Virus record (IMG/VR): IMGVR_UViG_2061766007_000015
Location: 1 to 64,000 of that record
DNA: 64,000 nucleotides
From: a virus
Taxonomy: Duplodnaviria; Caudoviricetes
Direction: 5' to 3' (one strand)
The translations under genes and the position numbers were made by a program. Positions 832 through 44,740 of the stretch are shown here, one piece after another. The notes below the pieces were generated by a model. That model was not told where the DNA came from and searched no databases. It saw nothing but the letters and a program-made list of their open reading frames with translations. Position 1 is the stretch's first letter, and the number at the start of each line of letters is the position of its first letter.

Positions 832-1479
832 TTATGCTGTCTTGGTTTTCTTTGCAGGCTTTTTCTCTGTCTTAGGCTTTTCTGCTACAGGCTTCTTTTC
901 TGCTTTAGCCTTTTCTTTCTCTGCCTGCTTCTGTGCCTTAGCCTGTGCTTTGGCTTCTTTTGCTTCTGCCGCCGCTTTCTCAGCCTGGGCTTTTGCTTCT
1001 GCCTTAGTCGCATTGAACTGGCTGTATGTATTTACCAGTATCTGCAATACCTTGATGGCATCTGCATGTGCCACACGGTAGTTGTAGTAACTTACCTTAC
1101 CACTACCCTTGGGCTTCTCTACCGCCTCACGGTTAATCATGGGGTTCGCGGGAATTAATGCATCGATATTCTTACCTACCACATAGATGATACCTGTACT
1201 GCTGATGTATGCCTGGAAGCAGTTCTTAGTTGTACCCTTACGGAAGATGTGGATGTAACGGTAGTCGTTCTCACCGGTGGCTCTAGGGCCTTCCTGCAAC
1301 TCTGTGTCAAATACCAAGTCCACTACGGGGCTGTCTTTGAACGCATCGATTACGGTAGTACCGAAATCCTTATTGCTGAACTTAGGGGTAGCAGGCTTCT
1401 TCTCTACGGGCTTCTTAGCCTCTGCCTTCTTCTCTGCTACGGGGTTAACGGGTGTCTGGTTGTTAGTTTTCTTACTCAT
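832..1479 (-). CDS. Lys/Ala-rich basic protein with central globular domain (histone H1-like tails)
   Basis: AAGGAGG SD before MSKKTNN; KPVAEK/KPAKK-type repeats at both ends. Confidence 0.8.
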   Translation of the reverse strand: MSKKTNNQTPVNPVAEKKAEAKKPVEKKPATPKFSNKDFGTTVIDAFKDSPVVDLVFDTELQEGPRATGENDYRYIHIFRKGTTKNCFQAYISSTGIIYVVGKNIDALIPANPMINREAVEKPKGSGKVSYYNYRVAHADAIKVLQILVNTYSQFNATKAEAKAQAEKAAAEAKEAKAQAKAQKQAEKEKAKAEKKPVAEKPKTEKKPAKKTKTA

Positions 1480-4062: not shown

Positions 4063-4695
4063 CTACAGTTCCTTGTACTCGTTGAAGAGTTCAGCCACAT
4101 CCGGGAACAGTTCTGCATATTTCTGGTAGGTCTGCATCTCGCTCTTGGATGCGATGATAGCGTCCATCTTCTTACGAAGTTCAGCCTTCTTCTCTCGATT
4201 AGCCACCCTTGCATCATATGCTGTAGTATCCACAACTGATACTACCTCACCGGCAACGATAGCGGTATAATCAGCGTTATCATAAACACCTTTTACCTCG
4301 AGTAAAACCAAGCCTCGGGTCTTAATCTGGCCCACTATAAGTTTGTTCTGCAGGTCCTCTGTTGCGGCGTTATCATAGTCGTACAATGCTAACCTAAACA
4401 ATCTAGAACCTCCTACTTCCTGTGCCATTACTGTCTTCTTGAATAATTCCATTTCTTTGTCCTCCTGATTGTTGTTTATTGTAGATGTTGCTACCTGTAC
4501 TGGTGATAAATACTGATGTTTGTAGGTACTACGTTCCCATGGGTCATTGGGAAGTTCTACTTCGTAAACGTATCCATATGCGTTTTTCCTAACCTTCTTG
4601 ATTCTCATTATCTTGCCAGCATACTTATAGTCCGTATTAGGGTCAACTAACACTAAATCGCCTATTTGGTATGCATACATGCTTGTTGTAATCAT
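4063..4695 (-). CDS. Hypothetical protein (N-terminal SH3/KOW-like segment)
   Basis: 210 aa; YQIGDLVLV...GKIMRI pattern. Confidence 0.75.
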   Translation of the reverse strand: MITTSMYAYQIGDLVLVDPNTDYKYAGKIMRIKKVRKNAYGYVYEVELPNDPWERSTYKHQYLSPVQVATSTINNNQEDKEMELFKKTVMAQEVGGSRLFRLALYDYDNAATEDLQNKLIVGQIKTRGLVLLEVKGVYDNADYTAIVAGEVVSVVDTTAYDARVANREKKAELRKKMDAIIASKSEMQTYQKYAELFPDVAELFNEYKEL

Positions 4696-14465: not shown

Positions 14466-14513
14466 AAATATTCTCCTTTCATGAAGTTCTTGAGTTCTCT
14501 TGTTTATAGTAAC

Positions 14514-14546
14514 ATTATACAACACGTTTTAAGTAAAAGCAACAGG
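14514..14546 (-). promoter_or_regulatory. Class II sigmaA-like promoter
   Basis: CCTG-TTGCTT-17-TATAAT. Confidence 0.85.
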
Positions 14547-14550
14547 CAGT

Positions 14551-17208: not shown

Positions 17209-17242
17209 CTTTAGTTCCTCGCTTTCTTTATCTTACAAGAAC

Positions 17243-17271
17243 ATTATACAACGTATTTATCTTAAAATCAA
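17243..17271 (-). promoter_or_regulatory. Class II promoter
   Basis: TTGATT-17-TATAAT. Confidence 0.8.
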
Positions 17272-17300
17272 GAGGACGCTTTATGCGCCCTCTTTTTTTT
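17270..17300. terminator. Terminator hairpin (possibly bidirectional)
   Basis: AAGAGGACGC/GCGCCCTCTT; T8 on plus side. Confidence 0.65.
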
Positions 17301-20174: not shown

Positions 20175-20564
20175 CTATTCAAATTCTGTGTAATCACTAA
20201 ATCCGTTCACGTCAAGATTAAGGTTTATTGGTGGCTCTGTTCTCCTATTCCATGCTTCGATTGCTTCTTCTTCTGTAGAAAAAAGTCTGCTTTCTACTTT
20301 AACCATCGGTTCATCGAACCCCTCACATATATGCATGAATCCATGTACAGAGTTATCTCTCTCAGAATACATCTGTACTTTTTTACTTCCACAAAAAGGG
20401 CATGGTTTTAATTCTGTCATCCTTCCTTCGCTTTCTGTCCTTTGCTTTTCAAAACATTCGTCGGTACAAAGCACATAAGGCTTCTTGTCGATACGAACAG
20501 TAACAGGCTTGTCAATGAACAACGTTGCTACATCATCTTGGTTTAAAACAATAAATTCAGTCAT
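20175..20564 (-). CDS. Lar-family restriction alleviation-like protein (C-terminal part)
   Basis: ELKPCPFCG...EAIEAWNRR signature. Confidence 0.75.
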   Translation of the reverse strand: MTEFIVLNQDDVATLFIDKPVTVRIDKKPYVLCTDECFEKQRTESEGRMTELKPCPFCGSKKVQMYSERDNSVHGFMHICEGFDEPMVKVESRLFSTEEEAIEAWNRRTEPPINLNLDVNGFSDYTEFE

Positions 20565-21702: not shown

Positions 21703-21735
21703 ATTATACAACGTGTTTAAGATAAAAGCAACAGG
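21703..21735 (-). promoter_or_regulatory. Class II promoter
   Basis: CCTG-TTGCTT-17-TATAAT. Confidence 0.85.
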
Positions 21736-21763
21736 CAAGACAAATCTTAGTATCTTGCCTGTT
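21730..21763 (-). terminator. Terminator of the RNA array
   Basis: 11-bp AACAGGCAAGA/TCTTGCCTGTT stem + GCTTTT. Confidence 0.75.
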
Positions 21764-21770
21764 AGTTAAA

Positions 21771-21905
21771 TCGGTGAGATGGGATTTGAACCCACAAATA
21801 TCTGATAAGTACTTCTATATCCGGACTCTATTTTCCTCGTCATCGATACATTACTGAGTTTAACCGGTTCTCAGTAAACGACTCTACCTCTTCGTCCACT
21901 CACCT
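21771..21905 (-). ncRNA. Oversized tRNA-like RNA (135 nt)
   Basis: Acceptor GGTGAG/CTCACC, Leu/Ser-type D arm, T arm GTGGG-TTCAAAT-CCCAT; anticodon/variable region replaced by two long hairpins. Confidence 0.7.
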
Positions 21906-21907
21906 AG

Positions 21908-21979
21908 CGGGAACAGAAGGATTCGAACCTTCAACCAGACGATTAACAGCCGCCTGCTCTACCATTGGGCTATGTTCCC
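21908..21979 (-). tRNA. tRNA-Asn (GTT)
   Basis: Canonical cloverleaf GGGAACA...GGCGG-CTGTTAA-TCGTC...GAAGG-TTCGAAT-CCTTC-TGTTCCC. Confidence 0.92.
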
Positions 21980-21980
21980 T

Positions 21981-22125
21981 GGTCGGTTTAAGTAACCGAA
22001 ACTGCACATCTTCCGAATTTGGCCTGCTCGTATATTAAGACAATCCTTTGAACTTACCGTTTGCACGGCTGTTCGTCTTAATATCTTACACTGGGTCACG
22101 GTAACATTTGCTCTCTAACCCTCGC
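21981..22125 (-). ncRNA. Structured RNA between tRNAs
   Basis: Perfect 10-bp stem 22032-22041/22075-22084 enclosing GAAC..CCGT-GCAA-ACGG..GTTC (GNRA loop). Confidence 0.5.
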
Positions 22126-22214
22126 TGAGAACAAAAGGACTCGAACCTTTGTCTGGACTATCCATCGATATCTTCGGATTTCAAGTCGTATTTTACCAAT
22201 TAAACTATGTTCTC
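22126..22214 (-). tRNA. Degenerate tRNA-Ser(TGA)-like, 89 nt
   Basis: Perfect acceptor and T arms, CT-TGA-AA loop, long variable arm; anticodon stem with 2 mismatches; A73. Confidence 0.55.
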
Positions 22215-22217
22215 GGG

Positions 22218-22306
22218 CACCCCGTAGTGGACTTGAACCACGATATGGCCATACTGAGTTTGTCTGTTACTAAGACCAGCGTACTCGACTCTTGCGCTCA
22301 CGGAAT
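22218..22306 (-). tRNA. Degenerate tRNA-Leu(TAG)-like, 89 nt
   Basis: Acceptor ATTCCGT/ACGGGGT, GCG/CGC D stem, CT-TAG-TA loop, GTGG-TTCAAGT-CCAC; weak anticodon stem. Confidence 0.45.
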
Positions 22307-22405
22307 CTATGGTTTCTTTTCACATTACACTATACGGGGTATATTAATTTTTAAATTTGTCGGTCTCTCACAAACAGTTTATCAACTGCGGCACATCTCG
22401 ACTAC

Positions 22406-22606
22406 TACCTTGGGTGAGGATTCGCACCTCACATGGACTTCATTGACGGACGTGGCACTCATTAACTGAGGACTTGCTCTATTCTCTACGTCAATGATTG
22501 ATTGGTGGAGGCGTACTATCTGCTTTACCCACGTTTTTTATGAGCCTACAACACGCACCATTTCCTATTAGCGATATTTAGCGTCTACCTATTCCGCCAC
22601 CAAGGT
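22406..22606 (-). ncRNA. Giant tRNA-scaffolded RNA (201 nt)
   Basis: Perfect acceptor ACCTTGG/CCAAGGT, Leu-type D arm GGCGGAATAGGTAGACGC, T arm GTGAGG-TGCGAAT-CCTCAC; about 125-nt multi-hairpin insert. Confidence 0.75.
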
Positions 22607-22673
22607 ACTGTCTTTCATAAAAGGAGTCAATATATGTCGTGAAGCGTATCATTCTCGTTCACTTCACAATAAC

Positions 22674-22706
22674 ATTATACTAAATATTTACTGATATTGC
22701 AACAGG
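22674..22706 (-). promoter_or_regulatory. Class II promoter driving RNA array
   Basis: CCTG-TTGCAA-17-TATAAT. Confidence 0.85.
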
Positions 22707-22708
22707 TA

Positions 22709-23749
22709 CTACATGTTCATCTGCTCGTTAAGATAATCCTCAATCATGGTAAGAACTTCGCTATTGGTATCATCATCGAAGAACTCTCTTACACTTGCCT
22801 GTCCCTGCAACTTTGCAATCTGTTCTCCTGTTGTGGGATTTATGATTGCGAACCATGCACCGCTCTTATCTACAGCGCCATATTTAATTGCAAGGTCTAC
22901 TAAGTCGGCTATGTAGTCTACGCCGTAATCATAAGTAAGTGTATAGTATCCTGTTCTTCTTGTAGGCGGACAAGTCTTATTCTTCTCCATCGATACTGAA
23001 ACTAAATTGCCTGCAGGTGATTCTGAACTTCTCTTTATCTCGTTGCCCTTATCATCAATGAATGAACCACGGGAGAATCTGAGTCGTACAGAGCAAGCAT
23101 GTTTCCATGCTCTACCACCGGGAGTCTTTACTGCACCTGCCCACTGTGCGCTTAAGTCATCTCGTATCTGATTAATACCGATTAATGTGCATCTGTACTT
23201 ATGACAAGCCATCTCTGCTTTGCCGCTAAATGCTGTAAGTGCCTGAGATATACCTGCGTAGGTCTTATCTTCTACAGTCTTTTCCATAGCCTGCTGAGAT
23301 ACTAACATACCAATGCTATCGAGCACTACTAATCCAATCTCGCCTGTTTCAATCATATCCAAGATGAACTGGAATATTTCTTCGGCTGAATGTGATGTGG
23401 GCTTAAATACAATCATGTTGTCTACATCGACACCAAGTTTTCTTGCCCACTCAACATCTAATGTATTCTCTGCATCAACGTACAATACCTTCTTAGCATC
23501 GGGTAATGCCTGATAGTTGGCTATGATATCGAGTGCTGTCGTAGTCTTACCACCATGCTCTTCACCATAAAACTCAATGAGTTTGCCTATAGGAAGTCCA
23601 CCGAATGTCATGTAGTTAAGTCTTGGACTAGTAAACGGTATACGGTCAAAGTTATAGTCAGTAATACCTATCTGCACTACTTCTTCCATAGACTTTTTGT
23701 TCATGGCTTTCATTACTTCGTCTAAAGTCAGTTTCTTATCTGCCATCAT
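22709..23749 (-). CDS. recA: RecA/UvsX-like recombinase
   Basis: GEEHGGKTT Walker A, VVLDSIG, INQIR, TPGGRAWK. Confidence 0.92.
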   Translation of the reverse strand: MMADKKLTLDEVMKAMNKKSMEEVVQIGITDYNFDRIPFTSPRLNYMTFGGLPIGKLIEFYGEEHGGKTTTALDIIANYQALPDAKKVLYVDAENTLDVEWARKLGVDVDNMIVFKPTSHSAEEIFQFILDMIETGEIGLVVLDSIGMLVSQQAMEKTVEDKTYAGISQALTAFSGKAEMACHKYRCTLIGINQIRDDLSAQWAGAVKTPGGRAWKHACSVRLRFSRGSFIDDKGNEIKRSSESPAGNLVSVSMEKNKTCPPTRRTGYYTLTYDYGVDYIADLVDLAIKYGAVDKSGAWFAIINPTTGEQIAKLQGQASVREFFDDDTNSEVLTMIEDYLNEQMNM

Positions 23750-26520: not shown

Positions 26521-27600
26521 TTATTCGTTAAACAGACCAAGCACCTGAACTGTAATGCCGTCTACAAGTTTAAGTGTATTTTCTGTACCGTACTGAATGG
26601 TTACTTCGTCTACAGAGTTAACTTTGACCTGAGTCTTGAACATCTCAACATCAATCATGCACTCAAAATTTGTTTCGCCGCCACTCATACAGTCAAGAAC
26701 CTCAGAACCAACTGATTTCTTATTTTCCATAGTAAGCGAGCCACCACCGAATGTCAACTTAATGACATTACGGTCATAATCACCGACGAATACTGAAAGT
26801 CTGTCAAGTGCCTGCAGTAACTCATTCTTCTTGACCGTACAAGTATTTGTAAACTCAGTATTCACAAGACTGGACACGAGGTCAACATCATACTCATCAG
26901 CGTTACCATCGGCTTTCGTAATAAGTCTGCAATCAGCAGTAGTAAATACCAGCTTATCATCTTCTCTTACATAGTCAATTAGGCCTTCCTGACCGTTTGG
27001 CATAAGTTCAAGTAAATCAACAGTTGCCGCACTTAACAATACTGGCTCTTCTGCGAACTTCTTGTTAATGGAACAAATCTTTTCTCCGTCTGTACTGAAA
27101 ATGCACTCGCCTGCGTAATATGATGTAAGAGCAATTACGTTAGGGTCTGTACACAGAGCCGTCTTTGCTGTAGAAATCATGGTATTAATAAGACCTACTG
27201 ATACCTTCTCAGGTGTAATGCCTTCCGGAACAGGAGGTGCAGTAAGTTTAACAAATGTGCCATCAACATCAAGCGGTAATTCAATCTTGTACTTACTCTT
27301 GCCGCCGAGTACTGTAAGACTGTCTGCTTCGATATCCAATGTGATGTTCTCGCAGGTCATCTTAGAAATCAATTTTGCAAAACTGTCGGCTAATACTACT
27401 ATGCTGAACGTGTCAGCAGTATCTACCGCTGTCGATACCTGAAAGTAGTTTGTTGTGTCTGTGGTGGTCAAAACAAGTCTTTTACCTGCTAAGTCAATTG
27501 CCATAAGACTTGTGATGGGTAAAAGTTTGTTGTTTGATGAACCCTTTACTGCTTTTGCTACGAGTTCCTGAAATTTGGTAGTGTTAATTGTGAATTGCAT
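26521..27600 (-). CDS. dnaN: DNA sliding clamp (beta subunit-like)
   Basis: About 360 aa three-domain pattern; LVLTTTDT, TDGEK, ELLQALDRL motifs; AAGGAGG SD before MQFTIN. Confidence 0.8.
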   Translation of the reverse strand: MQFTINTTKFQELVAKAVKGSSNNKLLPITSLMAIDLAGKRLVLTTTDTTNYFQVSTAVDTADTFSIVVLADSFAKLISKMTCENITLDIEADSLTVLGGKSKYKIELPLDVDGTFVKLTAPPVPEGITPEKVSVGLINTMISTAKTALCTDPNVIALTSYYAGECIFSTDGEKICSINKKFAEEPVLLSAATVDLLELMPNGQEGLIDYVREDDKLVFTTADCRLITKADGNADEYDVDLVSSLVNTEFTNTCTVKKNELLQALDRLSVFVGDYDRNVIKLTFGGGSLTMENKKSVGSEVLDCMSGGETNFECMIDVEMFKTQVKVNSVDEVTIQYGTENTLKLVDGITVQVLGLFNE

Positions 27601-28456
27601 TGTGTCCTCCTTTTGCATAGTTGCCACTTATTATTTTAGGTACTGCGTGTTCCCAATCTATTATGTGATGGTAACGCTTATTTGAAACGCCCATGGTTGC
27701 TACTTTAACACATGATGGGCAATTCATAACTGTGTAGAATGATTTAACATACGTACCGTTATCTAGATACGATTCAGTTAAACCGCCAGAAAATGCTTGT
27801 GTCGTACACTGGTCTAATGAGACATTTGCTGTAGTAAGAAATAGCTTTCCTCTACTGCCGTGCAACACATATGCGGTTGTATCTTCATTGATTCTGCCAA
27901 TGAAATCAAATGGTCTATCCGTCTTACAAAAGAACGAGTTCATGGCCTTTCGTGCAAGTTTCTTCTTCCACACATTGGAACCTTTGCCACCAATGAAATC
28001 ACCTGTTTGGGCAAATGCTACAGTATGTGCTCCTGATTTCTCAAGAAAGTTTATGTACACATCAATAATGGAATCTAAGTCTCGCACATAGATTGTACCA
28101 AACTTACCAGTCTCATCTTCATACCTGCAACGAAACTCTTGGTAATCATCATCAAGTTCCAAGAAGTAAGTTAAGCCAAGTTCTTTTGCTATTCGATGAC
28201 ACTGATTACGTGCAAACAGTACTATGTTTCTTGCGGGGTTTAAGTCGCAAGTGTCACTGGTTTTTGAGGCTTCAAGTTTATCGAACTGTATGACTTTATC
28301 GCCATACAATCTTCTGTACTCATCTTCCTGTTTGTCCTCATTGTCAATGATGATATAGTACTTTCCTGTATAACCACATTTCTTTAACGAGTCTACGGTT
28401 ACAACTCTATCTGCTCTGCCATGAGACAGAATGAATACCGCAAAATCATTTCTCAT
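27584..28456 (-). CDS. GT-A fold glycosyltransferase (TAGT/GREB1-like)
   Basis: FILSHGRAD, FLELDDDY, GRINED, HH.I.W..AVPKI. Confidence 0.75.
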   Translation of the reverse strand: MRNDFAVFILSHGRADRVVTVDSLKKCGYTGKYYIIIDNEDKQEDEYRRLYGDKVIQFDKLEASKTSDTCDLNPARNIVLFARNQCHRIAKELGLTYFLELDDDYQEFRCRYEDETGKFGTIYVRDLDSIIDVYINFLEKSGAHTVAFAQTGDFIGGKGSNVWKKKLARKAMNSFFCKTDRPFDFIGRINEDTTAYVLHGSRGKLFLTTANVSLDQCTTQAFSGGLTESYLDNGTYVKSFYTVMNCPSCVKVATMGVSNKRYHHIIDWEHAVPKIISGNYAKGGHNAIHN

Positions 28457-29662: not shown

Positions 29663-31974
29663 ACTTTTATTGATTCTCCGTACCAAGACTTAGATACTTC
29701 TACATCACAACTGAATGGCATATGAAGTATCTTCTGTGCCGCATCACTCATTACCTGAGCAAGCAACTCTGAACATTCCTTAGCGTTTTCTTCAGGACAT
29801 TCTGCGATTACTTCATCGTGTACTGGTATAAGCAATCTAAAGCCTAACTCTTTCAGCCTTGCATTGTTATGCAAATCAATCATGGCTAACTTTGTTAAGT
29901 CTGCGGCACTACCTTGGATTCTTGCATTTACTACCTGTCTTGTTGCTTCTGCTATCTTCTTTCCGTTGTCAATTATCCAAATACCTTCTTCGTTGGCTTC
30001 TTCAAATATCCTACGTTTCTGATTGAATCGACAATTAGCAAGTTTAGCCAAATAGTATTTTTGCTTGTTCTCGGGTACAGGTGCAACTGAATCATCTGAA
30101 TCAAAGTCAAGCACATCCCAATTCACTAATGCGCTAGAGTCTGACCATTTAAACTCGTACTCGGGTAACTGCATATCTGGCAATCTTCTCTTACGTCCGC
30201 ATACAGTGGTTACATAGCCTAATGTTCTAGCCATCTCTAATGAGGTATCTTCAAATATCTTTATCTCAAGATACTTCTTATATAGGTTGGCTTTCAACTG
30301 CTTCGCTCTATCCAAAGTTATATGCATGCCATCAGCAACACTTTCATCACCACGTCCATACAAAATACCTAACAACACTGGCTTTGCATCACTTCGTCTT
30401 TGCTTGTACTCTTTAGGGTTCTTATTACCGTTCTCGTCAAACTCTCGGCACATCTCGTATGCCACTTCAAAACATGCGCTGGCTACGTGGCTGTAAATAT
30501 CATCGCCTCGTACTCTTGCTTCGTACAATGCTGTATATCCCAACTCATTACAGAATGAAGCCAAGCATGACGGCTCTTGCTGACTATAGTCCGATGACAA
30601 TAACACACATCCGTCACTTGCGGTAAACATCTGTCGAATGTCTGTAATGTGAGATGGTATGTTCTGTAAGTTAGGTTCGCTACTAGACATTCTACCTGTG
30701 TCTGCACCATACTGATTAAACTTACAATGTATTCTTCCATCATTCGGATTTACACACTCAGGTAGTTTATCAATAAACGTGCTGACTATGGTTGAGAACT
30801 CTCGATAGTCTAGTATGGCTTTCGCAACGTCGTTATCTATCGCCTTAAGACTTTCTTCGTTGGTACTTCTTGACGGCTTCTTCGTCTTTTTATCGACAGG
30901 CTGTTCACACCCTAATATATCGTAGAGTATGATTGCTAACTGTTGAGGACTCTCGATATTAATCGGGTCACTTAGTTTGCAGTCGTGCTTGTGTATGCTT
31001 TTATAACGCTCAATATCGTTGCTGTAACGCTCTAGAACACTGTAGAAAGCGTTTACACGCTCTTCTAATAGTGCATGATACTTTTCTTTTAATTTAGCGT
31101 TATATTCGAAATCAAACTTAACACCAGCGTCTTCCATATCAGCCACAACTTCAACTAGTGGCATCTCAATGTTAAAGAATACCCAAGCAAGTTTACGCAT
31201 ATCTTCTCGGTCGGAGTCTGACCTTAGATACTGACTCTGGTACAAATAGAACTCATAGGTAATTCTCGGGTCATGAGCCGCATATAAAACTGCTGTCTGT
31301 AATGGTATGAGTGTAAATGGTATGCCTTTAAACAATTCATCGAAAGTAAACGCATCTTCTTTTCCATCCAATACATACTTCTGATGTAATGGCTTCAATC
31401 TGTTCACAGGCTCGTTCTCATTCAACAACCGCTGTGCTAAATAACAATCCCACGAACAGTATATACCTTTAACACCTACCATGTTTCGCATTACTCGTAT
31501 ATCGAAATCCGCATTGAACATTACGATAAACGGCTTTGCTTCCAACATGCGCTCAAACTCTTGGCGTATCAGTTCGATTGGCAATTGTCCATCAATCTTA
31601 CTGTTAGTCATGTAACTAACATGATTGATTGGTATATACGCTTCATTCAGTCCAGGTGTGTAAATACATATACCAGCAACTGTATCAAGCAGTGGATTAA
31701 GTCCCGTTGTCTCAGTATCGATACTTACTACACCGTTCGCAATAATCTTATCAATATATTGTTTTAGGGTCTCTTCGTCCTGGATTAAAGTGCAGTTATC
31801 TCGATATTTGCCTAAGTACTTCTCAACCGTGGCTATTGCAGTCTGTACTCTGGCCATTAAACCCCCACTACCCTTGATGGTAATGGGGGCTTTGTAAGAT
31901 GCACTATTTGCTTTTTTCGCTACCGAAACATCCTGCGCCCTGCTGGGTCTACTCGGTATAGTGAAAAGTGCCAT
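29659..31974 (-). CDS. polA: Family A DNA polymerase with 3-prime-5-prime exonuclease
   Basis: IDTETTG exo I; TGRMSSSEPNLQNIP; DYSQQE; AKPVLLGILYG; PVHDE. Confidence 0.92.
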   Translation of the reverse strand: MALFTIPSRPSRAQDVSVAKKANSASYKAPITIKGSGGLMARVQTAIATVEKYLGKYRDNCTLIQDEETLKQYIDKIIANGVVSIDTETTGLNPLLDTVAGICIYTPGLNEAYIPINHVSYMTNSKIDGQLPIELIRQEFERMLEAKPFIVMFNADFDIRVMRNMVGVKGIYCSWDCYLAQRLLNENEPVNRLKPLHQKYVLDGKEDAFTFDELFKGIPFTLIPLQTAVLYAAHDPRITYEFYLYQSQYLRSDSDREDMRKLAWVFFNIEMPLVEVVADMEDAGVKFDFEYNAKLKEKYHALLEERVNAFYSVLERYSNDIERYKSIHKHDCKLSDPINIESPQQLAIILYDILGCEQPVDKKTKKPSRSTNEESLKAIDNDVAKAILDYREFSTIVSTFIDKLPECVNPNDGRIHCKFNQYGADTGRMSSSEPNLQNIPSHITDIRQMFTASDGCVLLSSDYSQQEPSCLASFCNELGYTALYEARVRGDDIYSHVASACFEVAYEMCREFDENGNKNPKEYKQRRSDAKPVLLGILYGRGDESVADGMHITLDRAKQLKANLYKKYLEIKIFEDTSLEMARTLGYVTTVCGRKRRLPDMQLPEYEFKWSDSSALVNWDVLDFDSDDSVAPVPENKQKYYLAKLANCRFNQKRRIFEEANEEGIWIIDNGKKIAEATRQVVNARIQGSAADLTKLAMIDLHNNARLKELGFRLLIPVHDEVIAECPEENAKECSELLAQVMSDAAQKILHMPFSCDVEVSKSWYGESIKV

Positions 31975-32647: not shown

Positions 32648-33385
32648 TTAGTTTTCCTCGCTTTCTTTTACAAATGATAATACTTCGATAAATGCCTCTC
32701 TATACTCTTCCAAATACTGAGTTAAGTCAGTGAAATGGATTGAATGAGACTCGGTAAAATGACCGGTGGTCTTAGCATTATGATGCTTACACTTGAACAA
32801 CTCAACGTTGTGCTGGACTGAACTTGCTAACTGCGGTAAAGTTACACAATAGACTTCCTGCTTCTTCGCTCTTGAGTACATCATAAGCATTAGTCTACCG
32901 TTAATCTTAACACCGCAAGCACACTTGTACGGGTTCTCTGCAACCTGTACTCCGAGATTACCGAATGACTCGACATACTTCATTACCTCTAAAAGTAACG
33001 AATTGTAACCATCGAGTTTTCTCTGAGAAATTGCTTTAGCCTCTTTCTCTGCGGCTTCGGCTGCCTTACGTGCTCTCTTAGCCTTACGCTCGGCTTTCTT
33101 CTCAATCTTCTCGGCCTCATCAGCAGTCAATTCCTGCTCTGTGAGTTCTACCTCTGCGTATGCTTCTTCTGCTGTCTCTTCTGGTCCATCTGTATTAACT
33201 TTTCTTAAATTGGAACGAAATGTACTGTACGTACATGTAGCCTGTAGAAAAGGCTTACCTTCGACGGGTTCAAATGCAAGAGTCTTGTATTTGGTATCCC
33301 TTGAGACTAATCTTCCAGATTTACCGTTTCGTCTATCTTCATAGACCTGGCCGATAATGCCAACTTCATCGTTTGTGCTTTTCAT
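32648..33385 (-). CDS. Hypothetical protein with charged K/E/A linker
   Basis: 245 aa, AAGGAGG SD. Confidence 0.75.
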   Translation of the reverse strand: MKSTNDEVGIIGQVYEDRRNGKSGRLVSRDTKYKTLAFEPVEGKPFLQATCTYSTFRSNLRKVNTDGPEETAEEAYAEVELTEQELTADEAEKIEKKAERKAKRARKAAEAAEKEAKAISQRKLDGYNSLLLEVMKYVESFGNLGVQVAENPYKCACGVKINGRLMLMMYSRAKKQEVYCVTLPQLASSVQHNVELFKCKHHNAKTTGHFTESHSIHFTDLTQYLEEYREAFIEVLSFVKESEEN

Positions 33386-38359: not shown

Positions 38360-38370
38360 CTTACATGAAT

Positions 38371-38403
38371 ATTATACAACGTATTTTAATGAAAAGCAAC
38401 AGG
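38371..38403 (-). promoter_or_regulatory. Class II promoter
   Basis: CCTG-TTGCTT-17-TATAAT. Confidence 0.85.
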
Positions 38404-38425
38404 AGAGAGCAAAAACTCTCTCCTG
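38400..38425 (-). terminator. Terminator-like hairpin
   Basis: CAGGAGAGAG/CTCTCTCCTG 10 bp. Confidence 0.65.
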
Positions 38426-42438: not shown

Positions 42439-42993
42439 TTAATTATATTTGAAAATCATATTATTATACGATTTACAATTACCTTTACAAATTGCCGAGA
42501 TTTTTCCATGAGGAACTTTCGTTGCTCGTTCAGCGGCCATTGTTGATTCAAATTCTCCAATAAATTCTCCATTAACTTTATAAGCCTTAACAATTTTACC
42601 TTGCTTTTTTAAAATTGAAGCACGTATACGTTCCTTAGTTCGGTCAGGACAACCTCGTCTTGAGTTCGCCAAACGAATTTTATCTGGTCTACTTCCATAT
42701 GTATTGTTGTACAACGCTGTACACCACTCCAAATTAGTCACATTATTGTTGTCCTTATGCTCATCTTTATGATTAACCTGTGGTAAATTATTAGGATTTG
42801 GTATAAATGCTTGGGCTACAAGACGATGTACTCTAAACTGAATATGTTTTCCAGAGGTACTTCTGAGTGCAACAACTTTATATCCATTTACATTACTTTG
42901 TTTGAGTTCCTTACTGTCTCGATATACTCTACCAAAATTAGATATATAATATTGATACATAAATCCGGTTATAGGCATAAGTGTTTCTTGCAT
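42439..42993 (-). CDS. Free-standing HNH endonuclease (NUMOD4-HNH-NUMOD1 type)
   Basis: YYISNFGRV, VHRLVAQAFIPNP...VNHKDE.K.NN...NLEW; C-terminal GEFES...A. Confidence 0.85.
   Translation of the reverse strand: MQETLMPITGFMYQYYISNFGRVYRDSKELKQSNVNGYKVVALRSTSGKHIQFRVHRLVAQAFIPNPNNLPQVNHKDEHKDNNNVTNLEWCTALYNNTYGSRPDKIRLANSRRGCPDRTKERIRASILKKQGKIVKAYKVNGEFIGEFESTMAAERATKVPHGKISAICKGNCKSYNNMIFKYN
42463..42490 (-). promoter_or_regulatory. Promoter inside HNH 3-prime end
   Basis: TTGTAA-16-TATAAT. Confidence 0.5.
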
Positions 42994-43003
42994 CAGTATC
43001 TCC

Positions 43004-44740
43004 TTATGATAATAAAAATTGTAATAATTCATCTTTATTGCCGACAATTTGTCCATCAACTACTGCATCTGAGATAGCACCTTTCTTCTGCACTAATTCC
43101 CAAACTCTTTCATCAATAGTATTTTTTGTTAACAAGTTATATATTGTAATTTTATTCGTCTGACCTATTCTGTGACAGCGGTCTACAGCCTGGTCATATA
43201 GTGCTCTGTTCCACGGGTGGTCAAGAAAAATCATAATAGTGCCTGCTGTAAGTGTGAGACCAGTACCCATAGCACCGATAGTACCTATAAGTACATCTAT
43301 TCCATTGTATTTTCTGCTATGTAACGCCGCATTACTTTCAGTATCTTGGAATTGAAATACTACTTCCTGTCTTTCTGAGTCTTTTGTATTTCCTGTAATT
43401 TGGCCTACTTTGTACTTCTTATGTAGTCTCTCAAACACCACATCTGTTATCTGTGTCCAGTTAGAGAAGATAACTACTTTTTTACCATTACTAACTGCTT
43501 CTTCTACAAGTTCTTCCATGCGGTCAAGTTTTGCTGACTCTTTAATCATGCTTGAGAGAATACCTGTATAGCCTGTAGCCTGTCTCATTCGGATTAACTC
43601 TGCTAAGGGATTACTTGCATTTTTAACCTGGTCAATATTGGCCTTAATGTCTGTCGTAATCTCTTTGTATATCTGAGCCTGCTTGGCTGTCATCTCAACA
43701 TATTCATCTACGTACAACTTCTCAGGTAAATCTAATACTTCTGATTTAAGTCTACGTAACATAATCTCATTTAGTCTTTCCTGTAACTCATCAAGATATC
43801 TATAACCGACAACTTCATAGCCACCAAAACCACCCATGACACAATAATGATTTCGGAAAGAATAGAAAGCATGTTTCTCATAGCCTAACCATTTAAGTAT
43901 CATGTATAAGTCTAAAGGCTGATTCATAATAGGTGTACCAGTCATAGCAATCATTGTCTCTGCCTGCACCTTCAATATGCCTTTACCTTGCTGACTTGTG
44001 TGGTCTTTCGCTTTATGACACTCATCAAACGCTATCATGTTGATATCGCCTGACTGCGTTAATTTGACGATTTCAGCGACTATTTTTTCGTCTCTGAAAG
44101 TTTCTACGTTAGTTATGATAAAGTACTCTTGGTGAGCGTCCAGGAGCGTCCTATCGCTATGTCTGAGTTGCAGTACATCTTCTAATTTATCTTTATTGCC
44201 GCCTACAACTAATCGACCGTCTCTTCTGACTCTCTGACCAAGTATTCGGCACTGCTCATCTGAGTGAGTTTCAATCTCATTCTTCCAGTTCCACTTAAGA
44301 CCATTAACACCGCAAATGATAAGACAATGCTTATATCCTAAAGTACGTTTCTTATCCACTGCAATATCAATAATCTGCTTGGTCTTACCTAAGCCCTGCT
44401 CATCTGCAAGTAACCACTTATCGTGATTAAGTCCATATAAGACACCTGCAATCTGATGTTTGAATGGCTTAGTCTTGAACTTAAAGCCGTCAGGAAGTTC
44501 AGTAAGTTCTTCCTTTTCTGCAACATAACCATTGATAGTGAAATCGAAATCAGTCAATCTCTCAGTAATATAACCTAACTTCTTAACAGGTATTTCCCAT
44601 TCTTTTGTATTTACATTATAAGAACGCTCTGACAGTTCTTTAATAGTATCCACTATCTTGCTGTTATAATCGAATGATACAAATAATGAGTATTCATAGT
44701 TAGTTAATTTCTGAGACTTTTGAATATTTATAGTTATCAT
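43004..44740 (-). CDS. SNF2-family helicase
   Basis: LADEQGLGKT, FDECHK, MTGTP, QAVDRCHRIGQ; AAGGAG SD before MITINI. Confidence 0.9.
   Translation of the reverse strand: MITINIQKSQKLTNYEYSLFVSFDYNSKIVDTIKELSERSYNVNTKEWEIPVKKLGYITERLTDFDFTINGYVAEKEELTELPDGFKFKTKPFKHQIAGVLYGLNHDKWLLADEQGLGKTKQIIDIAVDKKRTLGYKHCLIICGVNGLKWNWKNEIETHSDEQCRILGQRVRRDGRLVVGGNKDKLEDVLQLRHSDRTLLDAHQEYFIITNVETFRDEKIVAEIVKLTQSGDINMIAFDECHKAKDHTSQQGKGILKVQAETMIAMTGTPIMNQPLDLYMILKWLGYEKHAFYSFRNHYCVMGGFGGYEVVGYRYLDELQERLNEIMLRRLKSEVLDLPEKLYVDEYVEMTAKQAQIYKEITTDIKANIDQVKNASNPLAELIRMRQATGYTGILSSMIKESAKLDRMEELVEEAVSNGKKVVIFSNWTQITDVVFERLHKKYKVGQITGNTKDSERQEVVFQFQDTESNAALHSRKYNGIDVLIGTIGAMGTGLTLTAGTIMIFLDHPWNRALYDQAVDRCHRIGQTNKITIYNLLTKNTIDERVWELVQKKGAISDAVVDGQIVGNKDELLQFLLS

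Follow-up and report, generated by a model that had tools for sequence, protein, structure and literature searches.

The 64,000-nucleotide stretch of DNA analyzed here (the window) comprises positions 1 to 64,000 of IMG/VR record IMGVR_UViG_2061766007_000015, a complete 73.6-kb phage record with direct terminal repeats. Directly downstream of recA it carries an array of tRNA-like genes that, judged from sequence comparison, probably constitutes a single transcription unit with one decoding tRNA, tRNA-Asn, and non-decoding RNAs set on tRNA frames. The frames themselves are read, with moderate confidence, as processing and stability handles for functional inserts. An original prediction, made from the nucleotide sequence of the window, had proposed that tRNA frames act as carriers of non-decoding RNAs, and comparison with other phages supported it: the frame of the first element, E1, recurs in hundreds of phages around unrelated inserts, and the insert of E1 itself is conserved and covarying; a motif of element E6 and a 45-nt module of element E2 persist while the frames around them change by compensating substitutions.

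Organization of the array

The features of the array are listed in transcript order, all on the minus strand; labels beginning with L or X stand for other contigs compared with the window.

22674..22702, minus strand: sigma-70-type promoter, TTGCAA-17-TATAAT, with 10 of 12 consensus matches; the same promoter precedes every related array
22639..22667, minus strand: 5' leader hairpin GUGAAG...CUUCAC directly after the promoter, read from the sequence and kept in L159, L160, and L162-L166
22406..22606, minus strand: E1, a predicted 201-nt anticodon-less tRNA-Leu-like chassis RNA with a 153-nt structured insert
22340..22405, minus strand: spacer RNA between E1 and E2, with a stem GUCG.../...CGAC around a 30-nt insert
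22218..22339, minus strand: E2, a 122-nt RNA with a 7-bp closing stem (CCCCGUA/UACGGGG) and an adjoining 4-bp T-like hairpin with the loop UUCAAGU
22126..22214, minus strand: E3, an 89-nt class I tRNA frame (Rfam tRNA model, 50.5 bits) with a 4-bp anticodon stem and a 24-nt loop
21980..22125, minus strand: E4, a 146-nt structured RNA without a tRNA frame, with a 10-bp stem, a GCAA-capped hairpin, and a 3' hairpin
21907..21979, minus strand: canonical tRNA-Asn(GTT), called by ARAGORN and Rfam (64.9 bits)
21771..21905, minus strand: E6, a 135-nt class II tRNA-like frame with a 72-nt insert (Rfam tRNA model, 25.6 bits)
21729..21764, minus strand: intrinsic terminator, a 14-bp stem followed by a T-rich tail, kept in all four relatives whose contigs reach the end of the array (L159, L160, L162, and L163)

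The promoter and the terminator enclose about 900 nt. No minus-strand open reading frame (ORF) of at least 50 amino acids (aa) was found between 21665 and 22709, where the only ORF was an antisense one starting with TTG. The original prediction of a single promoter and a single terminator around an interval lacking a credible ORF was borne out by the quality of both signals and their conservation in relatives, and the number, sizes, and order of the elements had also been given correctly.

Genome-wide, ARAGORN and Rfam at gathering thresholds made only two calls: tRNA-Asn(GTT) and a "tRNA-Ser(tga)" of 89 nt that corresponds to E3. Against the gathering cut-off of the Rfam tRNA model RF00005 (29 bits), tRNA-Asn passed as a canonical tRNA, E3 passed formally, and E6 failed. 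E1 and E2 were missed by ARAGORN and by the Rfam tRNA model even at E-values up to 10, and no other Rfam 15 family matched the array up to the same value. The complete anticodon arm (5-bp stem, 7-nt loop, U33, and an anticodon at positions 34 to 36) was present in tRNA-Asn only, which agrees with the claim of one normal tRNA in the array. The abnormal elements are encoded among phage tRNA genes and on the same strand.

The further claim that acceptor, D, and T arms are kept while the anticodon arm is broken or expanded stood for E1, E3, and E6 and failed for E2, which has no D arm. One outcome named in advance as damaging to the prediction was not found: no Rfam family covers the abnormal elements. 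Homologs show compensatory double changes in E1, E6, and E2. Single-sequence folding gave modest z-scores for the array elements (-0.6 to -2.7); the real support for these predicted RNAs is comparative and not single-sequence folding.

Anticodon-less tRNA-Leu-like RNAs

E1 starts with a 7-bp acceptor stem (ACCUUGG/CCAAGGU, discriminator A), followed by U8-G9 and a Leu-type D arm almost identical to that of bacterial tRNA-Leu; the UG is shared with the family, and the D arm is exactly its GCGGAAUAGGUAGACGC. The D arm is separated from the T arm by 153 nt without an anticodon arm. The T arm (G-UGAGG / UGCGAAU / CCUCA-C) has a 5-bp stem extended by a sixth G:C pair, and its loop carries G in place of U55, the family T loop being UGCRAAU. 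E1 has U8, A14, G18G19, C56, and A73, and G at position 55.

A search pattern consisting of the D arm and the T loop was matched in IMG/VR by at least 118 contigs with centers of 40 to 70 nt and by 84 further contigs with centers of 125 to 155 nt, and in at least 80 species genomes, mostly of Bacillota (Lactobacillaceae, Bacillaceae, Paenibacillus, Listeria, and Clostridia). By these sequence criteria, E1 belongs to a large unannotated family of putative anticodon-less tRNA-Leu-like RNAs, for which IMG/VR alone has at least 200 contigs. ARAGORN called no checked copy a tRNA, save one spurious partial overlap, and Rfam gave no match to the copies in the ten loci scanned.

Among 110 unique members, each of the acceptor pairs 1 to 7 was formed in 97 to 107 of 109, all four Watson-Crick types occurred, and 74 distinct acceptor sequences were counted, the stem covarying across them. 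The T-stem pairs covary as well, and the extra sixth pair is G:C in 93 of the 110, giving a 13-bp stack of acceptor and T stems against the usual 12 bp. The discriminator is A in 65 of the 110 members, and CCA is not encoded. The centers have no conserved column and fall into lengths of 37 to 65 nt and 125 to 155 nt; their usual predicted fold consists of 10 to 13 loose nt and then a single long hairpin ending in CAU, and a subset retains UAAG at the anticodon position. An E1 variant in L159, L160, L163, and L165 has the D loop AAGUAGAUA and the hairpin loop GGCAGUG, and this alternative-elbow form had no match in IMG/VR.

In cultured Lactobacillus and Bacillus phages, E1-type elements are unannotated or overlaid by a "hypothetical protein." They lie between the late activator (RinA or DUF1492) and HNH/terS genes in Lactobacillus phages Sha1 and H1-Guo and between two tRNA-Arg genes in Lactobacillus phage ATCC 8014-B2, and are also present in Bacillus phage phi3T and L. 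plantarum phage phiJL-1. In the literature searched, no paper on the E1-type family or on RNA1 of phage T5 was found. In contig L061, a drum RNA (RF02958, 72 bits, positions 230-335) is located 125 nt past an E1-type chassis RNA (positions 10-104) and before three tRNAs, so that another orphan structured RNA class adjoins the E1 family in at least one phage.

Three other phage contigs (L313, L292, and L327), with acceptor stems that differ from that of E1, have inserts to which the 153-nt insert of E1 could be aligned from end to end. Long single-stranded blocks are identical among these homologs, and over the whole element 15 of the 54 predicted pairs show double changes, several of them within the insert. 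On this comparative evidence the insert is a conserved, covarying putative RNA module. A search of IMG/VR and the JGI metagenomes with the insert pattern returned no copies beyond the same three distinct sequences. The sole gene shared by the neighborhoods of these homologs encodes an HNH homing endonuclease, which is not specific. The window itself has a gene for a NUMOD4-HNH-NUMOD1 homing endonuclease (42439-43059, minus strand), and relatives of this endonuclease are encoded near the E1-insert homologs in L313 and L292.

The same E1 frame surrounds an unrelated 116-nt insert in L162 and L164, two relatives of the phage of the window. Compared with the window, divergence begins directly after the D stem, and the sequences converge again at CAUG before the T stem.

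Variation among relatives and genome setting

The cluster formed by the RecA of the window at 90% has nine members, of which eight contigs were compared. All eight have the same promoter and differ in the content of the array. In L162, E1 with the other insert and a long spacer RNA are accompanied by a fusion of an E2 stub with E6; L160 carries the variant E1, a long spacer RNA, and another E6; L163 has an additional tRNA-like RNA and a tRNA-Arg. The array of L159 begins with a tRNA-like RNA (4139-4301; frame ACCUUGA/UCAAGGU, normal T loop) in the center of which a second, mini tRNA-like RNA of 67 nt is nested (4196-4263; 25.9 bits with the tRNA model), and continues with the variant E1, in which an acceptor change is compensated, followed by another E2, a normal tRNA-Arg(acg), and another E6. 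In L165, a 66-nt mini tRNA-like RNA has a tetraloop hairpin in place of the anticodon arm. The spacer RNA measures 65 nt in the window; its stem encloses about 150 nt of insert in L160, L162, L163, and L165 and none in L159. ORFs placed by gene callers across the E1 and spacer RNAs (66 aa in L160, 4199-4399; 48 aa in L163, 1731-1877) look spurious: where relatives differ there, the changes preserve RNA pairing through compensation yet alter the encoded amino acids. Contigs from 2025 runs of other studies contained E2, E3, and E4 with hardly any change; the two possible source runs of the window are dated 2011 and 2015. Taken together, the variation fits a putative exchange of cassettes at constant ends and not slow decay.

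In E6, the D arm is of Leu/Tyr type and the T loop is normal, the anticodon position is occupied by an 8-bp stem with an 11-nt palindromic loop (AACCGGUUAAA, window 21858-21868), and the variable arm is expanded to about 50 nt. The five E6 homologs represent three different frames, with double changes at six of six predicted acceptor pairs and also at D- and T-stem pairs, and the motif UCGAUGACGRGGAAA ... GAAGUAC is kept in all of them. A reading of this motif as a K-turn or C/D box was dropped, the required GA pairs being out of register. The loops at the anticodon position are all palindromic, with AACCGGUU in the window and ACCGGU or GCGC in the homologs from L159, L160, and L163, which suggests that loop-loop (kissing-loop) dimerization may occur. 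Contig X9 has 71 other letters in the place of E6.

E2 had been described as Leu(TAG)-like. This did not hold, as the element has only the closing stem and the 4-bp T-like hairpin, that is, an acceptor/T-like minihelix without D arm or anticodon arm. Its copy in L159 has a fully different, compensating frame (GCCUGCU/AGCAGGC) around the same 45-nt inner module. In IMG/VR, an exact 18-mer of this module gave only two chance matches, which lie within protein-coding sequence of unrelated phages rich in GC. The 3' end of E2 (22220-22235, minus strand) has a 16-nt exact match at 1315-1330 (plus strand), inside an ORF on the minus strand (832-1509). A search for an antisense target of the array in the phage genome gave an E-value of 0.011, against 0.042 for the best of 20 shuffles, and the match is probably due to chance.

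The frame of E3, previously taken as Ser(TGA)-like, is instead class I and of Arg type: relative L163 has a normal tRNA-Arg(acg) (2217-2288) with exactly the same T arm and the same 3' acceptor strand. The tRNA-Ser(tga) call looks artifactual, with the ARAGORN anticodon at the odd position 32 and a D arm of class I. From its sequence, E3 is a tRNA-Arg(ACG)-type frame with the anticodon arm apparently replaced by the 24-nt loop. A 72-nt version, 17 nt shorter, stands in its place in Logan contig X5, and the long form is retained with one or two differences in contigs X9 and X11 (other studies, 2025). The acceptor and T arm of tRNA-Asn are common to the tRNA-Arg(acg) of relative L159.

E4 ends in ACCA directly before tRNA-Asn. 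Its fold (z = -2.69) was better than that of all but one of 200 shuffles, and the element was nearly unchanged in contigs from three other runs, without a match in Rfam. The exact 30-mer of the E4/tRNA-Asn junction had no match in the JGI metagenomes. A candidate homolog in contig L034 (850-1000) aligned poorly and unconvincingly and is not claimed.

All genes of the window are on the minus strand. Upstream of the array lies recA (22709-23749), and genes for a cell-wall hydrolase, a DNA polymerase III beta-clamp homolog, a TET-associated glycosyltransferase, and a family A DNA polymerase are found nearby. The glycosyltransferase (27584-28456, minus strand) is a probable DNA base modification enzyme, and a gene for a Lar-like restriction-alleviation protein is located at 20175-20564 (minus strand). 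The promoter-like stretch 3' of the array terminator (TGTATAAT type) has further copies at 14511-14548, 17240-17275, and 38368-38413 (minus strand), which indicates a repeated promoter class. The best-matching public runs were bovine gut metagenomes, and the phage bearing the array is a cattle-rumen phage. No close relative was found among cultured phages, the top RecA identity being 42%, and blastn of the whole array against cultured phages matched tRNA-Asn genes only. In none of the relatives with RecA identity of 57 to 67% were tRNAs found beside recA, and a BLAST search of the array against their full records gave a match limited to the first 30 nt of E1. No phage-encoded CCA-adding enzyme, RNA ligase, or RtcB was found in this phage.

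Possible roles and known counterparts

In the proposed mechanism, host RNase P, a 3' processing enzyme (usually RNase Z), and the CCA-adding enzyme would process the precursor at each acceptor/T-arm frame in the manner of a tRNA operon, releasing stable L-shaped RNAs together with the frameless RNAs between them. The tRNA frame would be the processing and stability handle, and the working part would be the folded insert at the anticodon or variable-arm position. Inserts and frames would be swapped as cassettes through recombination at their constant ends, so that close relatives would differ mainly in the set of RNAs carried. We infer transcription as a single unit, processing, stability, and any cellular target, taking the RNase P, RNase Z, and CCA steps from established tRNA biology. 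The handle reading is favored because the frames appear interchangeable (E2 and E6), the inserts appear interchangeable (the E1 frame with its hundreds of centers), and at least one insert seems to be under structural selection.

Fast turnover, a strong promoter, and an occurrence confined to phages suggest that the RNAs function in conflicts of phages with hosts or with other phages, e.g., by binding a host factor or titrating it away. More tentatively, and with low confidence, the frames might form a display platform in phages of Bacillota and others, carrying exchangeable aptamer-like cassettes, each of which would serve as an RNA anti-defense module and counter or redirect a protein of the host or of a rival phage. 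On this reading, host tRNA processing would make such cassettes stable and abundant, they would be swapped at the frame ends by recombination, and the window would represent a multi-cassette operon in active turnover. Besides nuclease decoys, synthetase sponges, and anti-defense factors as candidate roles, the original prediction named a T-box sponge, which is unlikely because no anticodon is present.

Several observations weigh against the frames being handles for functional inserts. The folding z-scores of E2, E3, and E6 are modest, and the only metatranscriptome run yielded three short contigs that cover just the tRNA-Asn gene and recA. The E3 insert could be a recent neutral insertion, because it has no homolog elsewhere, and the 45-nt module of E2 may be shared by common descent alone, because the phages carrying it are close relatives. 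That neither the D arm nor the T loop seems to vary in the E1 family is due in part to the search pattern, which required both. No protein partner or target was found, the recurrent genes flanking E1-type elements being late regulators and homing endonucleases only.

The main rival, considered unlikely, places the activity in the frame itself. As mimics of tRNAs, the RNAs would sequester a tRNA-binding host factor (such as the leucyl-tRNA synthetase LeuRS, a tRNA-directed defense nuclease or nucleotidyltransferase toxin, or RNase P); selection on the center would be absent or would act only against a cleavable anticodon loop. The near identity of the E1 D arm with that of bacterial tRNA-Leu and the U8, G18G19, C56, and discriminator A of the window copy would suit such mimicry. 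Bacterial LeuRS needs A73 and the core formed by the D and T loops (U8-A14, G18-U55, and G19-C56) but can do without the anticodon arm (PMC2377443). Most of this set is retained in E1; the G at position 55, however, breaks the G18-U55 contact reported to be critical for leucylation (PMC2377443), and a discriminator other than A is found in about 40% of the family. That most E1-family centers share nothing would also be expected of an active frame, and defense systems cutting phage-relevant class II tRNAs are known, e.g., Septu, which is reported to cut the variable loop of tRNA-Tyr (PMC13096335). A pure decoy, however, would not need the conserved and structured insert of E1 or the motif of E6, and the window holds four different frames, not one.

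It is improbable that the elements are neutral debris, that is, tRNA genes broken by insertion or illegitimate recombination in a recombination-prone locus and heading for loss. Array content does vary among near-identical phages, with an E2 stub fused to E6 in L162, a tRNA of normal length at the place of E3 in one contig, and 71 letters at the place of E6 in another; the genome has a homing endonuclease gene, and the E3 insert lacks a homolog. Debris would not, however, be expected to keep its acceptor and T stems paired through many double changes, as in E1 (74 acceptors), E6, and E2, nor to share a covarying E1 insert among unrelated contigs. The maintenance of the E1 family in hundreds of phages and prophages and the persistence of the abnormal forms, unchanged, in samples of other studies taken years apart also argue against decay.

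A role in cis is very unlikely; here the frames would attract RNase P or RNase Z as punctuation of long phage transcripts, whose cleavage would define mRNA ends, and the released RNAs would have no function. It would agree with temperate Firmicute phages, where an E1-type element heads the late operon between the late activator (RinA or DUF1492) and the HNH/terS genes, sometimes 13 to 30 nt before a ribosome-binding site, but the array of the window is bounded by a promoter and a terminator of its own and contains no mRNA that such cuts could delimit, and a conserved, structured insert would not be required. Intron-bearing tRNA genes, the inserts of which would be spliced out to give normal decoding tRNAs, are the least plausible explanation. 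In favor of them, the inserts lie at or near the anticodon position, a known site of bacterial group I and archaeal tRNA introns, and the E3 frame occurs in a normal tRNA-Arg of a relative. On the other side, Rfam searches at E-values up to 10 gave no match to group I introns or any other ribozyme family, and no excision from E1, E2, or E6 yields an arm of 5 bp closing a loop of 7 nt. The inserts are also hypervariable, both in sequence and in length (37 to 155 nt), unlike self-splicing introns, and the lack of an RNA ligase or RtcB in the phage argues against phage-driven splicing.

Among known systems, RNA1 and RNA2 of phage T5 (AY543070, misc_RNA 30501-30644 and 32959-33083) are annotated as "tRNA-like stable RNA with unknown functions" and, like the window elements, lie inside a phage tRNA cluster between real tRNAs. 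The plan of T5 RNA1 is that of E1 and E6, with an acceptor stem, a Leu-type D arm (GCCGGAAUUGGUAGACGG), an insert replacing the anticodon arm, and a T arm; its T loop is normal and its T stem measures 5 bp, whereas E1 has UGCGAAU and the sixth G:C pair. T5 also differs in having a proteobacterial host, and its annotation includes neither cassette exchange nor insert families. The species 1 and 2 RNAs of phage T4 (rnaC and rnaD; NC_000866, 70908-71171), small stable RNAs ending the phage tRNA cluster beside a homing endonuclease gene, resemble the window elements in location and annotation. With these RNAs annotated, the kind of RNA is already known, and they are its closest known relatives. 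In the literature and databases searched, the breadth of the E1 family, the 13-bp acceptor/T stack with the G55 T loop, and the conserved insert classes seem to be undescribed, as do the use of several different frames per operon and cassette turnover in situ.

tmRNA resembles the elements in that an acceptor stem and T arm close a large insert replacing the anticodon arm. It differs from E1, where pair 3:70 is C:G and not G3:U70; ARAGORN found no tmRNA, no tag reading frame is conserved, and the changes in relatives compensate in RNA stems. Bacterial class II tRNA-Leu (RF00005) shares with E1 the D arm, U8, G18G19, C56, the 7-bp acceptor stem, and the frequent discriminator A, whereas E1 has no 7-nt anticodon loop, G for U55, and an acceptor/T stack of 13 bp instead of 12 bp. 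In the synthetic tRNA scaffold used for recombinant RNA expression (e.g., PMC3753655), a foreign RNA is placed at the anticodon stem and processed and protected like a tRNA. The scaffold is an engineered tool and not a natural family, so that its likeness to the array concerns the working principle and not descent.

RNA genes of this type are missed by tRNA finders and by Rfam, and spurious ORFs are sometimes laid over them by gene callers. The usual view of phage tRNA genes is that they serve codon usage or counter nucleases. Most of the tRNA operon described here appears unable to decode, yet it is kept, structured, and rapidly exchanged. Since the E1 chassis occurs in tractable phages (phi3T, Sha1, phiJL-1, and ATCC 8014-B2), its function is directly testable, and such tests might also explain T5 RNA1 and RNA2 and the T4 species 1 and 2 RNAs. 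If the frames are processing handles, the array would be a natural counterpart of the engineered tRNA scaffold, and the family would represent a large unexplored pool of phage regulatory or anti-defense RNAs.

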